Source of the DNA: a virus
DNA: 9,917 bases
Strand: one strand, 5' to 3'
UHGV virus genome: UHGV-0207821
Shown here: positions 1-9,917 of the stretch, piece by piece
Position numbering within the stretch: position 1 is the first letter of the stretch
Layout: each line of letters begins with the position of its first letter
Notes under the pieces: model-generated
What the model saw: only the letters and a program-made list of their open reading frames with translations
What the model was told of the DNA's origin: nothing
Databases searched by the model: none
Position numbers and translations under genes: made by a program

Positions 1-73
1 TGTGCCCCCATCGCTCTGATAGCCTGGTGTCGTCAGGTCCTTCCTGGAATTATGGCCCGTTACGGGGCGGCGG

Positions 74-616
74 TTACTCGCCTTTGTTCTGTAGCAACTT
101 CTCAGGCGCGCTTCCGGTAGTTTCCATCAGGTAATCAGCCAGTATCTGTGGCAGGTTTTCGTCAAGTCTTGCACATGCGTTACATGCTTTGGCTATTTCC
201 CTTTTTAGTTCATCCAGCATATACGGCCTTATATCGGGAAAGCGCCTTTGCATTGTGAGCGGGAGGCTGTCCATGATTGATGAAATCTGACTCGCTAGTT
301 TTGAAATCGCGTAGATGCAAAACTTTGTATCAATCACCTCGCCGCGTTCGCGCTCGTTTTTAAGTTCCTGCGCTTCCGCCTGGGCCGTCATTAATCTGAT
401 TCTTACGCGTAAAAGTTCATCATCATCAATCTCGCCTTTGTCGTTTGTAAGCTGGTTAATTGCATTGTTAACCCTATTGTCTATCACGCTGGCAACATCA
501 TAAAACGCCTCACGGCCTTTACGTTCAACGGGAGTCACTCCCCACTTGTCGAATGCTGTAGCACTTACCCGGCAGCTTTGCGCCATGGTTTTTTTGTTCA
601 TCAGGTGCGATTTCAT
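74..616 (-). CDS. Terminase small subunit, lambda gpNu1-like (possible packaging-redirecting TerS homolog)
   Basis: Translation aligns along its full length with lambda Nu1 as I recall it (e.g. RLMTAQAEAQELKNERERGEVIDTKFC...MDSLPLTMQRRFPDI vs lambda RLTRAQADAQELKNARDSAEVVETAFC...LDGLPLSVQRRFPEL). Start chosen at ATG 616 because of the upstream GGGGA Shine-Dalgarno; ATG 601 and GTG 628 are alternatives. Sits directly downstream of the cos site, as in lambda. Confidence 0.85.
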   Translation of the reverse strand: MKSHLMNKKTMAQSCRVSATAFDKWGVTPVERKGREAFYDVASVIDNRVNNAINQLTNDKGEIDDDELLRVRIRLMTAQAEAQELKNERERGEVIDTKFCIYAISKLASQISSIMDSLPLTMQRRFPDIRPYMLDELKREIAKACNACARLDENLPQILADYLMETTGSAPEKLLQNKGE

Positions 617-817
617 CAATATCCCCACTTAGTTAAGGTTTCAGGTTGGTGTGTTGGTGTTATCTTTCCCTTTTTATTCATAGAGATAGAGCGAAAAACA
701 AAACCACCACCACCAACCCGAAAAGGCTCATAAATAGCGAAAATCCGCAAGGTCGCCGCCCCGTAGCCTGCCGGATCGCCGGAAAGGACCCGCCAGCCAG
801 AACGGGCCCTAATTTCA
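617..817 (-). other. Lambda-type cos site: cosN 12-mer at 750-761 plus cosB-like repeats
   Basis: Plus-strand AGGTCGCCGCCC at 750-761 is the exact reverse complement of the lambda cohesive end GGGCGGCGACCT. The minus-strand sequence just after it (TGCGGATTTTCGCTATTTATG) closely matches lambda CGCGGGTTTTCGCTATTTATG (R3 region, from memory). AGCGAAAA repeats at 690-697 and 736-743; inverted CACCAAC-rich blocks at 644-660 and 704-719 flank an AT-rich core. Confidence 0.75.
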
Positions 818-1201
818 TCAACCAATCAGCTTATAGCGACCATCCCGTGCATTGCGACGTACACGCTCAATCTTGAGGCATAGCGCCGCATCTGGCTTTT
901 TGGGGACAGGTACGCGGCAATATTCAGAAGCTCGAGGAATATTGTTTATCCAGTCGATCACTTCACTTAAATACCAGGCTTTACGCCCTTCCGTAACCTG
1001 TACGCGTTCGGGGAACTCTCCACGAGCCTCAAGGTTTAGCAATGTGCGACGGCTAAGGGTAGTAAGTTCCATCACCTGATTCATATCAACAAGGCGTTCA
1101 CTTAAACGCATTTTGTCAGCAATAGCCTTTAATTCCTCTACTGCTGGATCCGGATACATCATTTCGGCAATTGGCTTAAGGTCATTGTAATGATTCTGCA
1201 T
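818..1201 (-). CDS. AlpA/MerR-like helix-turn-helix DNA-binding protein, function unknown
   Basis: Central motif MELTTLSRRTLLNLEARGEFPERVQVTEGRKAWYLSEVIDWINN has the AlpA/excisionase-type HTH pattern. ATG at 1201 is preceded by AGGGGGA. Lies between the gpD-like gene and cos. Confidence 0.7.
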   Translation of the reverse strand: MQNHYNDLKPIAEMMYPDPAVEELKAIADKMRLSERLVDMNQVMELTTLSRRTLLNLEARGEFPERVQVTEGRKAWYLSEVIDWINNIPRASEYCRVPVPKKPDAALCLKIERVRRNARDGRYKLIG

Positions 1202-1212
1202 TGTATCCCCCT

Positions 1213-1554
1213 TTACACACGAGCCAGCGGCTGAACAGAAATACCTGAGCCAACAAACGCGGCAACCTTTGCCGACAGTTCTCTTACAGACTCAGGCCAG
1301 TTCAGAGCATCAACATTTAAAACACCTGTCTTATAAACCTGTGCCTGTGTTTTTTTCGCTGTGTCGATTTGTACAGCGGAAACATAAACCGCTTTGCCTG
1401 CGCTCGTTCCATCCCATACCACTAGCGCACCAGTTGCATCTTCCTGCATCAGTGGCGTAAACGCAGGTATTACCCCTTTATTGGCTGAAAATATCCCCAG
1501 CGTAGTAACCAGTGCTTCAGTGCCAGACATGAGTTCAGTGTAATGAGTAGCCAT
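1213..1554 (-). CDS. Head decoration protein, lambda gpD-like
   Basis: 113 aa; conserved blocks shared with lambda gpD from memory (TPLM, VVWDGT, YKTG, WPE, AAFVGSGISV vs TPLM, VAWDGT, YKSG, WPE, TAFAGTAISIV). SD AGGGGGAG precedes ATG 1554. Confidence 0.85.
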   Translation of the reverse strand: MATHYTELMSGTEALVTTLGIFSANKGVIPAFTPLMQEDATGALVVWDGTSAGKAVYVSAVQIDTAKKTQAQVYKTGVLNVDALNWPESVRELSAKVAAFVGSGISVQPLARV

Positions 1555-1563
1555 TGCTCCCCC

Positions 1564-2610
1564 TTAGCCAATGCGAACGGTAACAAAACGATTGATGCGG
1601 GCCGGTATTGGCTGTGGTGCAGAGTGCGTTTGTACGTACTCAATAGCCGGATCACCAGGCACAATATAGTTTTTCGGTGCAAGTTCGGCTTTAGTCAGCC
1701 CCATTCGGGTTAGCTCCGGATCCTGAATACCGCCATAGGCGACAATCCCCTGAAGAGCCGTATTGCCAAGCACCATCAAATCAGGATCAAGGAAATGTTT
1801 TTCAGTTCCGTCCTCGTCGGTATAACGTCCGCTGTAAACAACAATCGCAACATCGCCCATATACCCTTTAAAACTCACCGAATCACCAAGGTCTTTAAGG
1901 GCCGTTTCCAGTTCGGAATTAGAACCACGGCGGGTATCCAGAGCCTCTTTTATCGCTCTGAATGAACGGTATTTCTTCCATACATTACCGCCCATAATGA
2001 TGATATTAGTGACGCCCTCACTAAATTCTGCGTAGCTCTCAATATCATCATTTGGATCAAAAGTTTCTTTATCCTTACCTGACCACTCAGCACCGCCAGA
2101 CTGCGTGATAATATTTTGTGGTTTTATATTCCAGTCCAGTTCATAACGTTCAATACCATCGCCCTCAATGATATTTTTCCCCGTTGTGATTGCCTGAACA
2201 GCAAGCCATTCAATACGTGCACGTATAGCTTTAGCCTGATTTACAATCGCCTGTTTAACTTTAATATTACGCGCCCCAAAAGCATTGTATTGTTCAGGTG
2301 ATACACCAGCAGGGCGCACAGCTAACTTATTTGGATCAATGCTGCTTTTCGGTTTCATATAGCCAGGGCGAATTATTTTTGATTCGTATCCCTCATCTCG
2401 TGAAACTTTACTGCCCACCATAGGAGAGCAAAACGCCGCGATCGGGATATTTGGATCGTCGATCGTATCAAGAATAATGTCTCTCGATTCAAAGATTACC
2501 GAGCGAGTGAAAAACAAACTGGTAAACAACGCATTTAATTTTTTTTGCACATCTTCAGCATTAGCCACCTGCACAAGCTGTGTAGGCGAATATAAATCAA
2601 CCATACTCAT
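1564..2610 (-). CDS. Major capsid protein, lambda gpE-like (HK97 fold)
   Basis: Long collinear similarity to lambda gpE as recalled (MSMVDLYSPTQL vs MSMYTTAQL; DTRRGSNSELETALKDLG and GDVAIVVYSG essentially identical). Start is the ATG at 2610 (MSMV...) preceded by AAAGAGGA, not the ORF-track start at 2691. Confidence 0.9.
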   Translation of the reverse strand: MSMVDLYSPTQLVQVANAEDVQKKLNALFTSLFFTRSVIFESRDIILDTIDDPNIPIAAFCSPMVGSKVSRDEGYESKIIRPGYMKPKSSIDPNKLAVRPAGVSPEQYNAFGARNIKVKQAIVNQAKAIRARIEWLAVQAITTGKNIIEGDGIERYELDWNIKPQNIITQSGGAEWSGKDKETFDPNDDIESYAEFSEGVTNIIIMGGNVWKKYRSFRAIKEALDTRRGSNSELETALKDLGDSVSFKGYMGDVAIVVYSGRYTDEDGTEKHFLDPDLMVLGNTALQGIVAYGGIQDPELTRMGLTKAELAPKNYIVPGDPAIEYVQTHSAPQPIPARINRFVTVRIG

Positions 2611-2777
2611 CCTCTTTACATTCATTACAAATAATTGTGAATATATTCTATTACCGATGTCTGCTATGCGAATACATGCAAACAAGTGCAATGTTGTATA
2701 AAATATGCCGTGACAACTTCAGTGCTGATAATTCGTGTTAATGTATTTACTTCCTTTGGTCGGGATTTATGTAGCAT

Positions 2778-2810
2778 GCCGGAAAATCTATTTTTTTCCG
2801 GCATCTTTTT
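2778..2810 (+). terminator. GC hairpin with T-run in the ssb to capsid intergenic region
   Basis: GCCGGAAAA (2778-2786) pairs with TTTTCCGGC (2794-2802), followed by ATCTTTTTGTTT. The T-run is on the plus strand, so it is a weaker fit as terminator of the minus-strand ssb operon. Confidence 0.3.
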
Positions 2811-2821
2811 GTTTGCAGAAT

Positions 2822-3244
2822 TTAAAACGGTATATTATCGCCGTACGGATCATCATTCCCCGACTGTTGTTTTGCCCTGTTCAGTGCGTCAGTGGCCTGC
2901 CCCTGCTGACCTTTTTTGCCGCCCGGTCGCGCCGTTCGCGCACTGATTACGCTGTCTGCGATAACCTGCCAGCCCCGCCGCGTTTCGCCGTTCTGGCCTG
3001 TCCACTGGCTTACCTGCATGTTACCCGCCACGCTCAGGAGTTCACCCTTGCGGTGCTTTGCCAGTGCTTCGGCCTGTCTGCCAAACGCCAGGACGGATAA
3101 CCACATCGTCGCCGTTCCGTCATCTGCCTGGCTGCACGGAAGTGGGACCGCCATACTCGCCATCGTCATTTGTGTACCCTTGCTGGTGGTCTTTAACTGC
3201 GGGTCAGCCACCAGCCGCCCGTAAGCCGCTATCTGTGCTGTCAT
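2822..3244 (-). CDS. ssb: Single-stranded DNA-binding protein (SSB), short form
   Basis: OB-fold region resembles E. coli SSB (QIAAYGRLVADPQLK vs KVILVGNLGQDPEVR; WLSVLAFGRQAEALA vs WHRVVLFGKLAEVAS). Gly/Gln-rich linker and acidic C-terminal tip DDPYGDNIPF (cf. DFDDDIPF). ATGA start/stop overlap with the upstream gene. Confidence 0.85.
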   Translation of the reverse strand: MTAQIAAYGRLVADPQLKTTSKGTQMTMASMAVPLPCSQADDGTATMWLSVLAFGRQAEALAKHRKGELLSVAGNMQVSQWTGQNGETRRGWQVIADSVISARTARPGGKKGQQGQATDALNRAKQQSGNDDPYGDNIPF

Positions 3245-3492
3245 GCTGTCTGCTCTCCGGTTTTAACGTTGATGGTTGTCACCTGTTCCGCTTCGGCAAT
3301 CTCCCGTTCTGTCAGTGTGGCAAAATTTGCCGCCGCCGTGGTCATGAATGCGCTTATCAGTTCGGGATGCGCTTTCGCGTATCCTTCTCCGGCGTGGCGG
3401 TCTATCGTTCTGATTGCCACCTTTAAGGCGTGCTCTGTCATGTCTAATGCGCGATATTTTGGTGCTGTTTTATCTCTGCTTTTTCTGGTCAT
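3241..3492 (-). CDS. Hypothetical protein
   Basis: ORF-track frame 3241-3522; start taken at internal ATG 3492 (MTRKSRDK...) so that it does not run over the iterons. Stop overlaps the ssb start (ATGA). Confidence 0.45.
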   Translation of the reverse strand: MTRKSRDKTAPKYRALDMTEHALKVAIRTIDRHAGEGYAKAHPELISAFMTTAAANFATLTEREIAEAEQVTTINVKTGEQTA

Positions 3493-5870: not shown

Positions 5871-6103
5871 AACCCCCCCCCATTTTCACAATCAGCAATC
5901 AGGATGGCTTTGGCCTCATTCAGCGCCATATCCGCACTAAGTTGCATAACCGCCAGCGAATGAGGAACGAAAGCCCCGGCATATTCTGTTTCACTGGTAG
6001 CGTGCTTATGCGCCCTGTCCGCGATAACAGAAATATCAATCGGCGCATCAATCAGTGTTTTGATTGCTTCGGCGGCTGCGTCCGGACGGGTGTTATTGCA
6101 CAT
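5843..6103 (-). CDS. Hypothetical protein, upstream half of a possible poly-G frameshift pair
   Basis: 86-aa ORF; the G9 tract encodes the GGG in ...ADCENGGGLCVMIVLIP near its C-terminus. A 10-G tract would fuse it in frame to the 5637-5870 ORF. Confidence 0.45.
   Translation of the reverse strand: MCNNTRPDAAAEAIKTLIDAPIDISVIADRAHKHATSETEYAGAFVPHSLAVMQLSADMALNEAKAILIADCENGGGLCVMIVLIP
5873..5881 (-). repeat. Homopolymeric G9 tract (C9 on plus strand) at the junction of two ORFs
   Basis: Nine consecutive C on the plus strand at 5873-5881, inside one ORF and directly upstream of the next ORF's ATG. Confidence 0.9.
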
Positions 6104-6461
6104 GGTGCACCTCCTGGCGAATACGGGCGGCGAATACCATCACGCAGCCAGCCGGGGATTGCTGACGTGCTTCCTGTTCGCTGGTGGCCTCGATGTGAAT
6201 CACGCGCGGTTGTGCCGTGCTCAGGGCGATAAAACGCCAGATAAAATTGTTCTCGCATTTCTGAATAAACAGCGTGTTTTCTTCGCGCCCTTTCCATGTT
6301 GCCGAGATATAGCCCATGTCATTGAGCATCTCGCAGGCATCCACCAGCGTATCAGCGGCTACGTGTACAGTGTTTTTACCGTCAGCCATGCAATCACGGT
6401 GCACCGCCAGGAAGGTGTATATAAATTTAGGGTGAGTTTGGGTATGCTGTGTTCCAGCCAT
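6093..6461 (-). CDS. Hypothetical protein, first gene of the leftward operon
   Basis: 122 aa from ATG 6461 (MAGTQHTQTHPKF...), SD GAGGT about 8 nt upstream. Normal amino-acid composition, unlike the junk-like translation further upstream in the same frame. Confidence 0.5.
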   Translation of the reverse strand: MAGTQHTQTHPKFIYTFLAVHRDCMADGKNTVHVAADTLVDACEMLNDMGYISATWKGREENTLFIQKCENNFIWRFIALSTAQPRVIHIEATSEQEARQQSPAGCVMVFAARIRQEVHHVQ

Positions 6462-6669
6462 AATCGTTACCTCATTTAACGGTTTGGTTAGAAGCCCGGT
6501 TAGTGTTCGCGCACTGCCGGGTTTCGTCGTTTTTATGAATCGCTCATTGTGAGATACATAGCGACCCCCATGTGAGATACACATTATATTGTGGTGATAT
6601 ACATTGCAAGTGTTTTTATATCTCACTTTTGTGTATAGTGATATACACATAACAAATTGGTGATTAACT
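6462..6669. promoter_or_regulatory. Divergent regulatory region with operator-like repeats
   Basis: Four same-orientation copies of GTGA(G/T)ATACA at 6549-6558, 6572-6581, 6593-6602, 6639-6648; inverted partial TATCTCAC at 6619-6626; palindrome GTGTATA-GTGA-TATACAC at 6631-6650 just upstream of the RHH gene. Lies between divergent gene starts at 6461 and 6670. Confidence 0.55.
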
Positions 6670-6972
6670 ATGTCTGTATACAAAAATGCAAAATCGCAAA
6701 TGACAACGATCAGGGTTCCCCACGATGTTATGGAGGGCATGGAATCCGTAAAACTGGACGGCGAAAGCAACGCCGGATTCATAGTAACCGCCATGCGCGG
6801 TGAGATCGCTCGCCGGCAGGCAGAAGGAAGAGGAGAAAATCCCTTGGTTTCTTCGCTCGATGCACTGGCGCAGGTGGAAAAAATCGGTGTCAAAGCAGCC
6901 GAGGAGATCGGGCAACTCGTCACCGTCGCGCGTGAAGAACTCCAGCGGCGCAAGGCCAAAGAACCAGAGTAA
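6670..6972 (+). CDS. Ribbon-helix-helix (CopG/Arc-like) transcriptional regulator, candidate element repressor
   Basis: N-terminal MTTIRVPHDVMEGMESVKLDGESNAGFIVTAMRGEIARRQ fits the RHH strand-helix-G-x-S-x-N-helix pattern. SD GGTGA 6 nt before ATG 6670. Charged, helical composition. Confidence 0.6.
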   Translation: MSVYKNAKSQMTTIRVPHDVMEGMESVKLDGESNAGFIVTAMRGEIARRQAEGRGENPLVSSLDALAQVEKIGVKAAEEIGQLVTVAREELQRRKAKEPE

Positions 6973-7029
6973 TCACCATCAGCGCCGTGGTGTAAGGTAT
7001 TACGGCGCATTGCTATGCAGGACAACACA

Positions 7030-7203
7030 ATGACCGATAAAGAATTGACCAAAACATTATCACCGGCACGGAAAAGACGGCGCAGAAAGATAGAGCATGA
7101 ATCAGAAAGATTCGCGCCATGTGCTTTTGCTCTTGAGAAATTCCTTAAAGAGCACAGGAAAAAGCTCTCGTTGCAAACCTTGGAACGAACCAAATCTGAC
7201 TGA
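7030..7203 (+). CDS. Small basic protein, hypothetical
   Basis: 57 aa from ATG 7030 (SD AGGA 7 nt upstream); very basic (RKRRRRK). Co-oriented with the RHH gene and followed by a terminator. ATG 7015 is an alternative start. Confidence 0.4.
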   Translation: MTDKELTKTLSPARKRRRRKIEHESERFAPCAFALEKFLKEHRKKLSLQTLERTKSD

Positions 7204-7676
7204 TCACATTGCCCACCAGCCGCAAATGTGGCATTGTTGGTGATGCTCATGCGTTGGGGATAACGTGTAGCTTGTGTCGAGGGGCCACCGTAGCGGGTGG
7301 CCTTTGTTTTGCCTGTTATCCGGCAATTGTGGCGCTTCGCCACACGGTTGATATAATCCCACTGCTCAGATTCATTTTTTGCGCAGTAGGTTAATTGTTC
7401 ACAAAGGCGCTCCGGCAACGGGGCGCTTTTTGTTTTTATTAGTTTGTAGAAACCTGACTCAGAGATAATGCTCATATTCTGATTGCCGTCAGGGGGGTAA
7501 GTTAAATTTACTCCCTTTTCATCAAGCATCTGCAACGCTCTGGCGTTAATAATATTGGTTTCACTCCCGCCAATAAGGCCGGAAATAACCGGAATAATTT
7601 CAGCGAAATTTTGCAGATTCTGGTTTTCAGGCCGAACGAAGCCCCGCCCCTGTACAGGCGTATATCCAGTATTCAT
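7204..7676 (-). CDS. Possible Bro-N/antirepressor-like protein; 3' end undefined because the frame has no stop until 6093
   Basis: N-terminal ~125 aa from ATG 7676 look protein-like; NMSIISESGFYKLIKTKSAP resembles the Bro-N/antirepressor signature (weak, from memory). Beyond about 7300 the translation turns Cys/Ser-rich and runs antisense through the RHH operon and the operator region. The 7204 end is arbitrary. Confidence 0.3.
7283..7310 (+). terminator. Rho-independent terminator of the plus-strand regulator operon
   Basis: GGCCACC (7283-7289), loop GTAGCG, GGTGGCC (7296-7302), then TTTGTTTT (7303-7310). Confidence 0.55.
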
Positions 7677-7728: not shown

Positions 7729-7917
7729 TTAGTGAACTGCCTCGCGGCTGTCCTTCCATGCCAGAACTTCGGATAAAGACCAGCCAACGGAACGACCACC
7801 GAGTTTACGCCGTGATGGGAATTGTCCAGTCTTCTCCAGGCGATACCGACATGAGCGGCTCAGGCCTGTAAGTTGCTGACATTCTTTTTCACGTATAAAG
7901 CGATCTGTGCTTAACAC
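7729..7917 (-). CDS. alpA: AlpA-family (excisionase/Vis-like) transcriptional regulator
   Basis: LSTDRFIREKECQQLTGLSRSCRYRLEKTGQFPSRRKLGGRSVGWSLSEVLAWKD is a classic AlpA HTH. Start proposed at GTG 7917, preceded by AAAGGGGGA. The ORF-track ATG at 8025 would add a low-complexity T/N/P-rich extension. Confidence 0.7.
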   Translation of the reverse strand: MLSTDRFIREKECQQLTGLSRSCRYRLEKTGQFPSRRKLGGRSVGWSLSEVLAWKDSREAVH

Positions 7918-8285
7918 AATTCCCCCTTTGTTGTTTCTTAAAGAGTCATTGGGTGGATTATTGGGTTGGGTTGTGTCGGATTGTGTCAGGGTGTTTATGG
8001 AATGGCAAACACTGGTGGCGGTCATTTTACAGAAGTGGGGGTAGTGAGAATAAAAATCCTTTTAATTCATTATGATGTAAAGGCATAAAATTCTGTTTTT
8101 ACGCCTTTTTTACATGTTTTTAAGAGTGATTCGCCAATGTACAAAAAGCCAGTAAAACGACTGAAAATCAACTTTTTAGGGTGTCAGTCAGATGATAATC
8201 AAGTTTGTTCCAGATTGTTCGCCGTTGTTCGTCGTGGTGTCTCGTTGTTTCACGTTGTGTCCGTTCTAAAAAATCGCAAAAAAAA

Positions 8286-9533
8286 TTATATTTCTCTGGC
8301 TATTGGCAGTGTGGTTACGTTTTCGTGAGTGCCTGCCAGTATCTCTAACCGCTCTGTCCACATGTCCAGCGCATTACGTTTCGCATCGAGATAACGGGAG
8401 TGGTTATAGACTCGCTGCATCCCTGGCATCTGGTGAGCGGTGAGTTGTTCGACAATATGCGGATCCACGCCTAAATCGTTCAGCATCGTGGTAAACGTGC
8501 GCCGTATATCGTGTAGTGACCAGTGCGGATGGTTTAATTTTTTGTGCATGAATCTGCCGTATTGCGACACACTGGCTTCCTGTTTCAGTTCCCCGAGTAA
8601 TAGCCCTGTGTGTCTGTTCTGCTCCACCAGCTGCGTGACGAACGGTAAAATGCTTTCCGGTATTGGCCTGAATATGGCGACCTTCGTTTTGCTGTGCTCT
8701 TTCGGTACTGTCCAGAGCATTTCCTTAAAATCCCACTCCCTGATCTCCGATAATCTCAGTTCTCCGGTTCGGCAGCCGAACACAATCAGGAGGCGGATTA
8801 GTGCGCTGTAGTAGGGCGGGAATATTTTTTTATCCAGCGCCTGTAATAATTCGCCAAGTTCTTTGTTGCTCAGCACGCGTTCGCTTATGCCTGGTTTTTT
8901 GCCAACGTCCACCACGTTAAGATCATCCAGAACGTTACTGACTGCGTAGCGACGTTTACGGCAGAACTTAAGCGCCTGTTTACACGCCTGCATCATGTGA
9001 CCAGACGTTACAGGGGATTTTTTGCGTATCCGGTCAAAACAGGCCAGCCAGTGACGTAACTCGCATTTATCCAGTGGCATATTGCCAATATGCTGTATGA
9101 CGTGATTATTCAGGCGGCTTTTCAGGCATACGTAATCGACACGGTTTTCCTTTACGTGCATTTCCAGCCAGTAGCTGATCGCATCACCCACCGTTACCGG
9201 CTTTAGTGCTTCCTGTATGGAGTAATTAAGCTCATGGCGTGGATTTTTTCCTTCTGCCAGCCATGCGCGACACTGTGCCGCTTTTTCCCTGGCTGCTTTC
9301 AGGCTCAGATCAGGATAATTTCCCAGCTTCAGGCGTTCCGGTGATACCTGGCGTCCAGCTCCTGCTCTGTAGGTGAAATACCAGGTTAACAAGCCGCTGG
9401 TGGAATGCCTGACGCTCAGGTTTCCACCGTCATTAAGAAATGTGGTTTTTGGGGCTGGTGTGCCGTTGATTTTTCTTAGCTGTGTATCGCTCAGTTTGTT
9501 AAGTGCTCTGCTCATAATTTTGAATCCGGTCAT
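8286..9533 (-). CDS. int: Tyrosine site-specific integrase, P4-family type
   Basis: N-terminal LSDTQLRKI...DGGNLSVRHS...LLTWYFTYR typical of P4-family integrases; C-terminal catalytic region with HDIRRTF and VYNHSRY (tyrosine nucleophile). ATG at 9533; the ORF track starts at GTG 9536, and ATG 9515 is also possible. Confidence 0.9.
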   Translation of the reverse strand: MTGFKIMSRALNKLSDTQLRKINGTPAPKTTFLNDGGNLSVRHSTSGLLTWYFTYRAGAGRQVSPERLKLGNYPDLSLKAAREKAAQCRAWLAEGKNPRHELNYSIQEALKPVTVGDAISYWLEMHVKENRVDYVCLKSRLNNHVIQHIGNMPLDKCELRHWLACFDRIRKKSPVTSGHMMQACKQALKFCRKRRYAVSNVLDDLNVVDVGKKPGISERVLSNKELGELLQALDKKIFPPYYSALIRLLIVFGCRTGELRLSEIREWDFKEMLWTVPKEHSKTKVAIFRPIPESILPFVTQLVEQNRHTGLLLGELKQEASVSQYGRFMHKKLNHPHWSLHDIRRTFTTMLNDLGVDPHIVEQLTAHQMPGMQRVYNHSRYLDAKRNALDMWTERLEILAGTHENVTTLPIAREI

Positions 9534-9538
9534 CACAA

Positions 9539-9562
9539 TTAACTACACCATTAACTACACCG
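9539..9562. repeat. Perfect 12-bp tandem repeat (x2) abutting the integrase start
   Basis: TTAACTACACC(A) at 9539-9550 and TTAACTACACC(G) at 9551-9562. Confidence 0.8.
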
Positions 9563-9586
9563 ATCATTGCACAAGGGGGTACAACG

Positions 9587-9606
9587 TGGAACAAGTTGGA
9601 ACAAGA
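9587..9606. repeat. 10-bp tandem repeat TGGAACAAG(T/A) x2 in the integrase upstream region
   Basis: TGGAACAAGT at 9587-9596 and TGGAACAAGA at 9597-9606, one helical turn apart. Confidence 0.7.
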
Positions 9607-9720
9607 AAAATTGCAATGAGCTTAAAAATCAAAAACATAATGAACAACGTGGCACATTATGAAACAGCAAAAAACACTAATTTATAAAATCACGATATTA
9701 ATAATGTAACTTATATTTTC

Positions 9721-9773
9721 GTGAAATCTGTCACTGAAGAAAATTGGCAACTAAAGGTTAAAACCGTTATAAC
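9721..9773 (+). promoter_or_regulatory. Candidate sigma70 promoter with CRP-like half-sites for the downstream sRNA
   Basis: GTGA-N6-TCAC at 9721-9734 (CRP core TGTGA-N6-TCACA); -35-like TTGGCA 9744-9749; 18-bp spacer; -10-like TATAAC 9768-9773; predicted start near 9780. Confidence 0.4.
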
Positions 9774-9779
9774 ACAGTC

Positions 9780-9873
9780 ACCGGCGCAGAGGAGACAATG
9801 CCGGATTTAAGACGCGGATGCACTGCTGTGTGTACTGTAGAGTCTGGCGGATGTCGACAGACTCTATTTTTTT
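9780..9873 (+). ncRNA. mcaS: About 94-nt sRNA with four GGA motifs, McaS(IsrA)-like
   Basis: Promoter-to-terminator unit with no ORF. 5' stem-loop CCGGC...GCCGG; GGA motifs in single-stranded or loop contexts (GAGGAGA, CCGGATT, GCGGATG twice); terminal hairpin plus U7. Sequence matches my recollection of E. coli McaS, a CsrA-binding sRNA; not verifiable here. Confidence 0.55.
9838..9873 (+). terminator. Rho-independent terminator of the sRNA
   Basis: TAGAGTCTG (9838-9846) pairs with CAGACTCTA (9858-9866); 11-nt loop containing GGA; followed by TTTTTTT (9867-9873). Confidence 0.7.
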
Positions 9874-9917
9874 ATGCAGTTTTAACTTTGCAGATAGCCG
9901 CATTCTCGCCGGAATTG

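Follow-up and report, generated by a model that had tools for sequence, protein, structure and literature searches.

To our knowledge, Gram-negative phage-inducible chromosomal islands (PICIs) occur commonly, most of them carry copies of a helper capsid gene for which no role has been found so far, and the control of their late zone is essentially unstudied. In the published work considered here, AlpA is treated as a single master regulator of the integration zone (PMC10111431, PMC11773190). Typical E. coli PICIs encode a single AlpA, and the second alpA of EcCIMP1, which lies at the end of the island and is read from the opposite strand, is dispensable for both excision and transfer (PMC11773190). 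The model PICI EcCICFT073 encodes Rpp (PDB 6hn7), a winged helix-turn-helix (wHTH) protein on the cosB side that redirects the small terminase subunit (TerS) of phage lambda to the satellite cosB (PMC6739421). Deletion of the EcCICFT073 capsid or decoration gene does not relieve lambda interference (PMC6092414), and PICI capsid genes have been reported as not required for transfer (PMC10111431). Here, we analyzed the virus genome UHGV-0207821, a stretch of 9,917 nucleotides (hereafter the window) that, read on its minus strand, is a Gram-negative cos-type PICI, and thus a phage satellite, of E. coli. The last gene of its capsid operon (818..1201, minus strand) encodes a 127-aa AlpA-family wHTH protein, which we term HTH127. 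None of the PICI literature that we consulted describes an AlpA paralogue in the late zone with a link to capsid genes. We propose, with about even confidence, that HTH127 is an autoregulated transcription factor of the satellite capsid operon that would act by binding four phased direct repeats, R1-R4, ahead of the capsid gene.

An AlpA-type protein in the capsid module

The HTH127 open reading frame (ORF) begins with an ATG 11 nt after the decoration gene, is preceded by a Shine-Dalgarno-like AGGGGGA 5 nt upstream of this codon, and is annotated by RefSeq in a 99.7% identical island as a 'helix-turn-helix transcriptional regulator' (WP_001179421.1). Residues 36-85 of the protein align with positions 2-51 of the 51-position Pfam profile Phage_AlpA (PF05930), scoring 34.9 bits where the cut-off is 21 (E 1.4e-8). 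The protein also matches PHROG 2790, 'excisionase and transcriptional regulator' (E 1.8e-48), and GIsul2 Xis, an AlpA-family excisionase (PDB 8c3t; E 1.6e-10). The latter is its best relative in both structure and sequence, with 40-45% identity over the wHTH. These matches, together with 9 Lys/Arg among the last 30 residues, bear out the preliminary description of this DNA, which had recognized a 127-aa protein with an excisionase-type HTH and a basic tail. The predicted structure opens with two N-terminal helices, which are followed by the wHTH (residues 36-86) and by a basic C-terminal helix (residues 105-119). It was built from an 85-sequence alignment that included generic AlpA domains (pLDDT 81), and a model from the 14-sequence family alignment, which reached a pLDDT of only 52, was discarded. 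The modeled fold is a winged HTH of the excisionase/MerR type. Beyond GIsul2 Xis, structural comparison gave values of 7.4 for RdfS, 7.1 for BldC, 7.0 for a mycobacteriophage Xis, about 6.5 for MerR proteins, 6.3 for RppC, and 6.2 and 5.9 for TerS DNA-binding domains, and Foldseek agrees. On the evidence of the model, HTH127 is much closer to excisionases than to the Nu1 DNA-binding domain; the earlier remark that the Nu1 domain has a similar fold is nonetheless right, as the two TerS values indicate.

Homologues of the same length, 127 aa, and 50-75% identical are encoded in many genera of the Enterobacteriaceae, including Escherichia, Enterobacter, Citrobacter, Klebsiella, Salmonella, Pluralibacter, Trabulsiella, Scandinavium, Buttiauxella and others, and HTH127 is under clear purifying selection. 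Across 14 aligned representatives, the HTH and wing are nearly invariant (LSRRTLLNLE...GRKAW.LSE...WINNIP) and a C-terminal motif, L.LK..R.R, is kept as well. Judged by conservation and profile matches, the ORF is real and encodes a conserved DNA-binding protein of the AlpA/excisionase type. In a profile search of 1.84 billion representative proteins, the full-length architecture was confined to about five representative clusters at E < 1e-30, beyond which only generic AlpA-domain matches followed. No relatives were found among 50,697 phage records, which fits the earlier statement that lambda has no equivalent. Antitermination of the kind performed by Pseudomonas aeruginosa AlpA was considered and is ruled out by the architecture of HTH127 and by the position of its candidate site. 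The P. aeruginosa protein is a Q-like antiterminator with eight helices, an N-terminal ring and a C-terminal HTH, and it recognizes a single 6-bp site between -35 and -10 (PMC9371919), whereas the HTH127 model is built differently and the candidate site described below is a multi-repeat array at and upstream of -35.

The order capsid-decoration-HTH127 is kept in all 12 loci that we compared, representing at least ten genera. Other parts of these loci vary: the integrase, the recombination directionality factor (RDF; AlpA or HTH_17), the replicase (a RepA-like helicase, a D5/Pox_D5 primase or DUF927) and the site of integration. The genes that come after cos vary as well and encode, depending on the locus, a Nu1-like TerS, a TIR-domain cargo protein or a tail assembly protein resembling gpI. 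Some of the islands sit inside a prophage capsid gene. Within the conserved module, HTH127 is the only DNA-binding protein encoded. A survey of 5,426 complete E. coli genomes detected HTH127 at 424 places in 398 genomes and this lineage of capsid and decoration genes at 423 places in 397 genomes, compared to 731 genomes with TerS-like DNA; the module is present in about 7% of complete E. coli genomes.

A candidate operator ahead of the capsid gene

The major capsid protein of the window belongs to the lambda gpE family (1564..2604, minus strand; 346 aa from the ATG at 2604, as in RefSeq). Upstream of its gene lies a candidate operator (2666..2701) made up of four direct repeats in 10-bp phase on the minus strand: R1, TTATAC (2701-2696); R2, TTGCAC (2691-2686); R3, TTGCAT (2681-2676); and R4, TCGCAT (2671-2666). 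When the DNA upstream of the capsid gene was aligned, the repeat array stood out as one conserved block amid diverged flanking non-coding sequence. Each HTH127 locus contains one such array, with 3-5 direct repeats that are TTGCAY-like and in about 10-bp phase, 60-85 nt before the capsid ATG. Arrays were scanned for with the patterns TTGCAY and TTRNAC, the chance expectation is about 0.005 arrays per window, and no phased TTGCAY pair occurs elsewhere in the window. The array was not found in EcCICFT073, which encodes a 55% identical capsid protein and is without HTH127, nor in lambda, an N15-like phage or two CFT073 regions with lambdoid prophage DNA. A scan of IMG/VR for three TTGCAC repeats returned more than 120 contigs, mostly unrelated, among which only L120 (L numbers denote sequences used for comparison) is a PICI with HTH127; this pattern is too short for database-scale specificity, and the scan is uninformative on helper targets. 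Origin iterons were ruled out as an explanation of the array, since the replicase type differs among loci while the array stays with the capsid module.

The recognition helix and the repeats appear to change together. The helix SRRTLLNLE is paired with TTGCAC repeats in the window, L004-L006 and L012, SRRTLLDME with TTATAC in L010 and L011, and SRQTILDME with TTAGAC and TTGTGC in L137. The helix is therefore invariant where the repeats are TTGCAC, and the divergent clades change both partners (NLE to DME, SRR to SRQ). A sigma-70-like promoter (TTCGCA-16-TAGAAT; 2645..2672, minus strand) is the only minus-strand match in positions 1-3300, and its -35 hexamer overlaps R4; in two other loci scanned, no consensus sigma-70 promoter was found upstream of the capsid gene. 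After ssb, between the replication module and the capsid operon, the window has a perfect 11-bp hairpin (2776..2804, not assigned to a strand), and a strong terminator-like hairpin separates the replication genes from the array in 11 of 11 loci examined. A hairpin before the array, a promoter match overlapping R4, and no consensus promoter in two other loci together form the geometry of an activator-dependent promoter.

Xis proteins and BldC, the closest structural relatives of HTH127, bind direct repeats as head-to-tail multimers. We propose that several HTH127 monomers similarly bind head-to-tail on the four repeats (pattern TTRNAC, period about 10 bp). The bound sites would lie directly upstream of, and overlap, the -35 element of a weak capsid-operon promoter, which the hairpin would insulate from the replication genes. 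Binding of HTH127 could then activate its own operon, thereby establishing a positive feedback loop. We infer that activation is most likely, rather than repression, because the promoter is weak and insulated by the hairpin and because the repeats are located at and upstream of -35. HTH127 would then be akin to the dedicated late activators of other phages and satellites. In islands like that of the window, transcription reading through cos would reach the downstream Nu1-like terS and drive it as well. Between HTH127 and terS, neither a promoter nor a minus-strand terminator was found in the window, and terS in islands of this type probably depends on such read-through. Whether transcription passes cos into downstream genes may depend on the type of island. 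In two other islands (L007:7367-7400 and L135:8890-8930), the HTH127 stop codon and cosQ are separated by a clear intrinsic terminator made up of a GC hairpin and a T run. According to the regulator model, HTH127 is close to cos because cos marks the end of the capsid operon, and its location is not evidence for cos recognition. A late-gene regulator was one of the roles envisaged in the preliminary description, and the phased array at the capsid promoter, in the ssb-capsid intergenic region, lends it circumstantial support.

Several considerations weigh against this regulator model. The gene and the array are physically linked in one module, so that their co-occurrence is partly hitch-hiking, and the repeat pattern was defined after inspection of the data; for these two reasons we give the model only about an even chance of being correct. 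The covariation of helix and hexamer, as read from the aligned loci, rests on three clades only. The overlap of R4 with the -35 hexamer in the window also fits repression, that is, negative autoregulation. Moreover, an autoactivating gene that ends its own operon needs a priming transcript, and a host or helper factor could bind the array instead of HTH127.

Alternative roles and the cos region

The preliminary description correctly placed HTH127 between the decoration gene and cos: the upstream gene encodes a head decoration protein of the lambda gpD family (1213..1554, minus strand; PF02924), and 56 nt separate the HTH127 stop codon (818-820) from cosN, close to the 57 bp or so that had been estimated. 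The 12-nt cohesive-end sequence of cosN, GGGCGGCGACCT (750..761, minus strand), and cosQ, GGGTCCT (785..791, minus strand), are both identical to those of lambda. A cosQ-like element had been anticipated near or within the 3' end of the gene; it is indeed near but outside the gene, 26 nt beyond the stop codon in the spacer. From this arrangement, HTH127 might be regarded as a packaging accessory that binds the cosQ side or contacts the terminase and adds packaging specificity or termination, in functional analogy to Rpp or to the DNA-binding domain of Nu1. In addition to the short distances to cosQ and cosN, this idea draws on the adjacency of HTH127 and cos in most loci, including L005, L007 and L137, which have no TerS or Rpp after cos, and on Rpp itself, a PICI-evolved wHTH protein that retargets the lambda terminase (PMC6739421). 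However, HTH127 has no blastp similarity to RppA (none at E <= 100) or to Nu1, and no match to the Phage_Nu1 profile. An alignment of the cos region of the window with its counterparts in lambda, EcCICFT073 and four other genera shows that a CGCTATTTATGA block and the motifs of cosQ and cosN are common to sites with or without HTH127, the motifs being the same in lambda and EcCICFT073, which both lack the protein. The cosQ-cosN spacer is nearly the same as that of lambda, the stretch from the stop codon to cosQ has diverged among HTH127 loci, no extra conserved site near cos was found among the loci compared, and the TTGCAY hexamer is absent from 629-817. The type of cosB, on the other hand, tracks the packaging gene independently of HTH127. 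The GGTGG-type repeats of the non-lambda cosB in the window (636..726, minus strand; including an inverted pair at 639-651 / 711-723), presumed to be the sites of the island TerS, go with Nu1-like TerS, and lambda-like R-site sequences are found in Kluyvera, where neither TerS nor Rpp follows cos. In Pluralibacter, a 131-aa ORF puts about 415 bp between HTH127 and cos, and the specificity elements of lambda-type cos are on the cosB side rather than the cosQ side (PMC6739421). Sequence comparison thus revealed nothing beyond adjacency to tie HTH127 to cos, which leaves the earlier suggestion of a second cos-binding specificity factor unsupported and makes a packaging role, in our estimate, quite improbable.

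The satellite could also employ HTH127 as a regulator or interference factor directed at its helper, acting in trans to activate or repress helper late or capsid genes. Such factors are commonly encoded by satellites, as exemplified by PLE CapR (as cited in PMC10111431). HTH127 travels with satellite copies of the helper genes E and D, and replacing helper capsid proteins would be a coherent strategy. P4 Delta and Vis are further satellite factors that act on helper genes, and we count them in favor of this possibility. Nevertheless, we did not find three phased TTRNAC repeats in lambda (48.5 kb), the two CFT073 regions (90 kb), the prophage DNA flanking helper-embedded islands, or the N15-like phage, whose cos is the closest match, although this is a weak test, as these are not established as true helpers. 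In addition, lambdoid late genes run from one Q-antiterminated promoter, leaving little room for gene-specific control, and we consider a helper-directed role unlikely. The family relationships of HTH127 would fit a role in recombination, since its best structural and sequence relative is the excisionase GIsul2 Xis and the annotation of PHROG 2790 includes excisionase; phased direct repeats are also a typical site type of Xis-like proteins. Against HTH127 as an RDF, whether as an excisionase or as an accessory of excision or integration, stands its location in the late module, about 7 kb from int and not beside the integrase. An AlpA or HTH_17 gene is already present beside int in nearly every locus, HTH127 remains constant across islands with different integrases and different att sites (smrA/abgR, fis, prophage capsid gene E, and others), and the sole repeat array is at the capsid promoter and not near an island end. 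A non-canonical second alpA, that of EcCIMP1, is dispensable for excision (PMC11773190), though its homology to HTH127 is not established. Altogether, we would be surprised to find HTH127 acting in excision. We find it equally hard to credit a dual-purpose organizer of the capsid module, in which HTH127 would activate the gpE and gpD genes and also, via its N- and C-terminal helices, contact terminase, prohead or cos DNA, thereby coupling satellite DNA to capsids made of satellite proteins. If true, the satellite would have a new way of tying the supply of capsids to packaging, different from both Rpp and TerS replacement.

The island and its place among known satellites

The window contains int, alpA, a replication module and a late zone with cos within about 10 kb, has a specific att site, and is without tail or lysis genes, as expected of a PICI. 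On the minus strand, the tyrosine integrase (9536-8286) is followed by AlpA in its canonical position in the integration module (8025-7729), small ORFs and then DUF4222, a RepA-like helicase (5109-3694) and ssb (3244-2822). Beyond the capsid module and cos, the island encodes a full-length Nu1-like TerS (74..616) that is 37% identical to lambda Nu1 over 179 aa and matches Phage_Nu1 (PF07471) with E 9.3e-24. EcCICFT073 (L003:22931-33655) has a matching layout (PMC6092414). E. coli TW10590 carries a 99.7% identical island between smrA and abgR, with one further 93-aa ORF after terS and before the island end. The island site is between smrA and abgR/mcaS. The McaS/IsrA small RNA (Rfam RF00115, 118 bits) at 9780-9875 (plus strand), just beyond the integrase end, represents host flank; because it adjoins the integrase end, we place the insertion on the mcaS/abgR side. 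The insertion point is presumably near the Rac prophage site of E. coli K-12. Between alpA and the small early genes there is an unusually long frame of 527 aa (6093-7676, minus strand). RefSeq leaves this frame unannotated in the TW10590 island, calling Icd-like, YlcI/YnfO and short HTH genes in its place, and the 527-aa frame is probably not a gene. A P4-type immunity RNA (C4/IsrK) was not found in the 6093-7676 region with Rfam at the gathering threshold. The canonical AlpA measures 98 aa by the first-ATG rule (7729-8025) and 62 aa in RefSeq (L001:16564-16752), so its true start is uncertain.

The genes around the conserved module differ among the other islands. In several HTH127 islands, cos is followed by neither TerS nor Rpp, and a tail assembly protein of 194-208 aa resembling lambda gpI is encoded instead (PHROG 32, with E values down to 1e-76; L005:7660-8259, L012:10064-10648 and L137:9720-10346). 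The cosB next to this gene in L005 resembles lambda R sites, suggesting that the helper terminase is used directly. A TIR-domain protein of 382 aa (TIR_2, E 6e-21, and DUF3298) is encoded directly after cos in a Cedecea island (L007:7681-8829, minus strand) and is likely anti-phage cargo. The insertion of this island in a prophage capsid gene E, indicated by a truncated capsid ORF at 9053-9823, makes it a helper-embedded PICI. A second, partial capsid gene lies downstream in L004, L010 and L120. In EcCICFT073, a 137-aa protein is encoded after the decoration gene (L003:32084-32497), the same slot that HTH127 occupies. We ruled it out as a counterpart, since the two proteins are unrelated, and a shared slot therefore need not mean a shared function. 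Weak similarity relates the 137-aa protein to head-maturation proteases (PHROG 53), in their scaffold-like C-terminal part, which corresponds to a Nu3-like scaffold, and the protein has no blastp match to lambda Nu3; EcCICFT073 may thus carry a scaffold-like gene beside its capsid and decoration genes. The RppA-dependent cos1 of EcCICFT073 (L003:32560-32660) has a complementary run, CACCACCACCAC, at the same distance from cosN as the GGTGG repeats of the window. Islands with Nu1-like TerS and islands with Rpp may, to judge from these sequences, use related cosB words in opposite orientation.

If the regulator model is correct, an autoregulated second AlpA-type factor with its own operator would provide a handle for switching the capsid module, which could reveal the roles of its capsid and decoration genes and would show whether terS relies on read-through across cos. 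Deletion of HTH127 could yield a packaging phenotype indirectly, through terS read-through. For genome annotation, a match to Phage_AlpA should be treated with caution, as it is not always a sign of an integration module.

The preliminary description had likened this arrangement to the sid-delta-psu-cos region of satellite P4. The likeness holds as a loose functional parallel, namely a satellite DNA-binding protein controlling a morphogenetic operon near cos, and goes no further. The sid-delta-psu genes of P4 are not known to have homology to the gpE-gpD-HTH127 genes, and Delta is a zinc-finger protein of the Ogr family that is unrelated to HTH127. We take P4 Vis to be a small AlpA-like HTH protein acting on P4 late promoters. 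BldC (PDB 6ama, 6amk) and lambda Xis (1lx8) are cooperative direct-repeat binders with just 13-18% identity to HTH127, whose array is a candidate site. Compared to the N-terminal domain of lambda gpNu1 (PDB 1j9i), HTH127 comes without an oligomerization domain and without the C-terminal domain that binds the large terminase subunit TerL. In Rpp, the wHTH is N-terminal, followed by a C-terminal coiled-coil dimer, and the protein belongs to the cosB side and recognizes cosB jointly with the helper TerS, whereas the wHTH of HTH127 is central, its gene lies on the cosQ side, and it has no sequence similarity to RppA; the slot of Rpp in EcCICFT073 is held in the window by a full Nu1 homologue. With respect to AlpA itself, HTH127 is about twice the size of the minimal domain, with two helices in a 35-residue extension at the N terminus and a basic C-terminal helix that is conserved. 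Unlike the AlpA regulators and excisionases of Gram-negative PICIs and genomic islands, it is encoded in the capsid module and not beside int, and unlike the canonical PICI AlpA, it coexists with a separate AlpA or HTH_17 gene.
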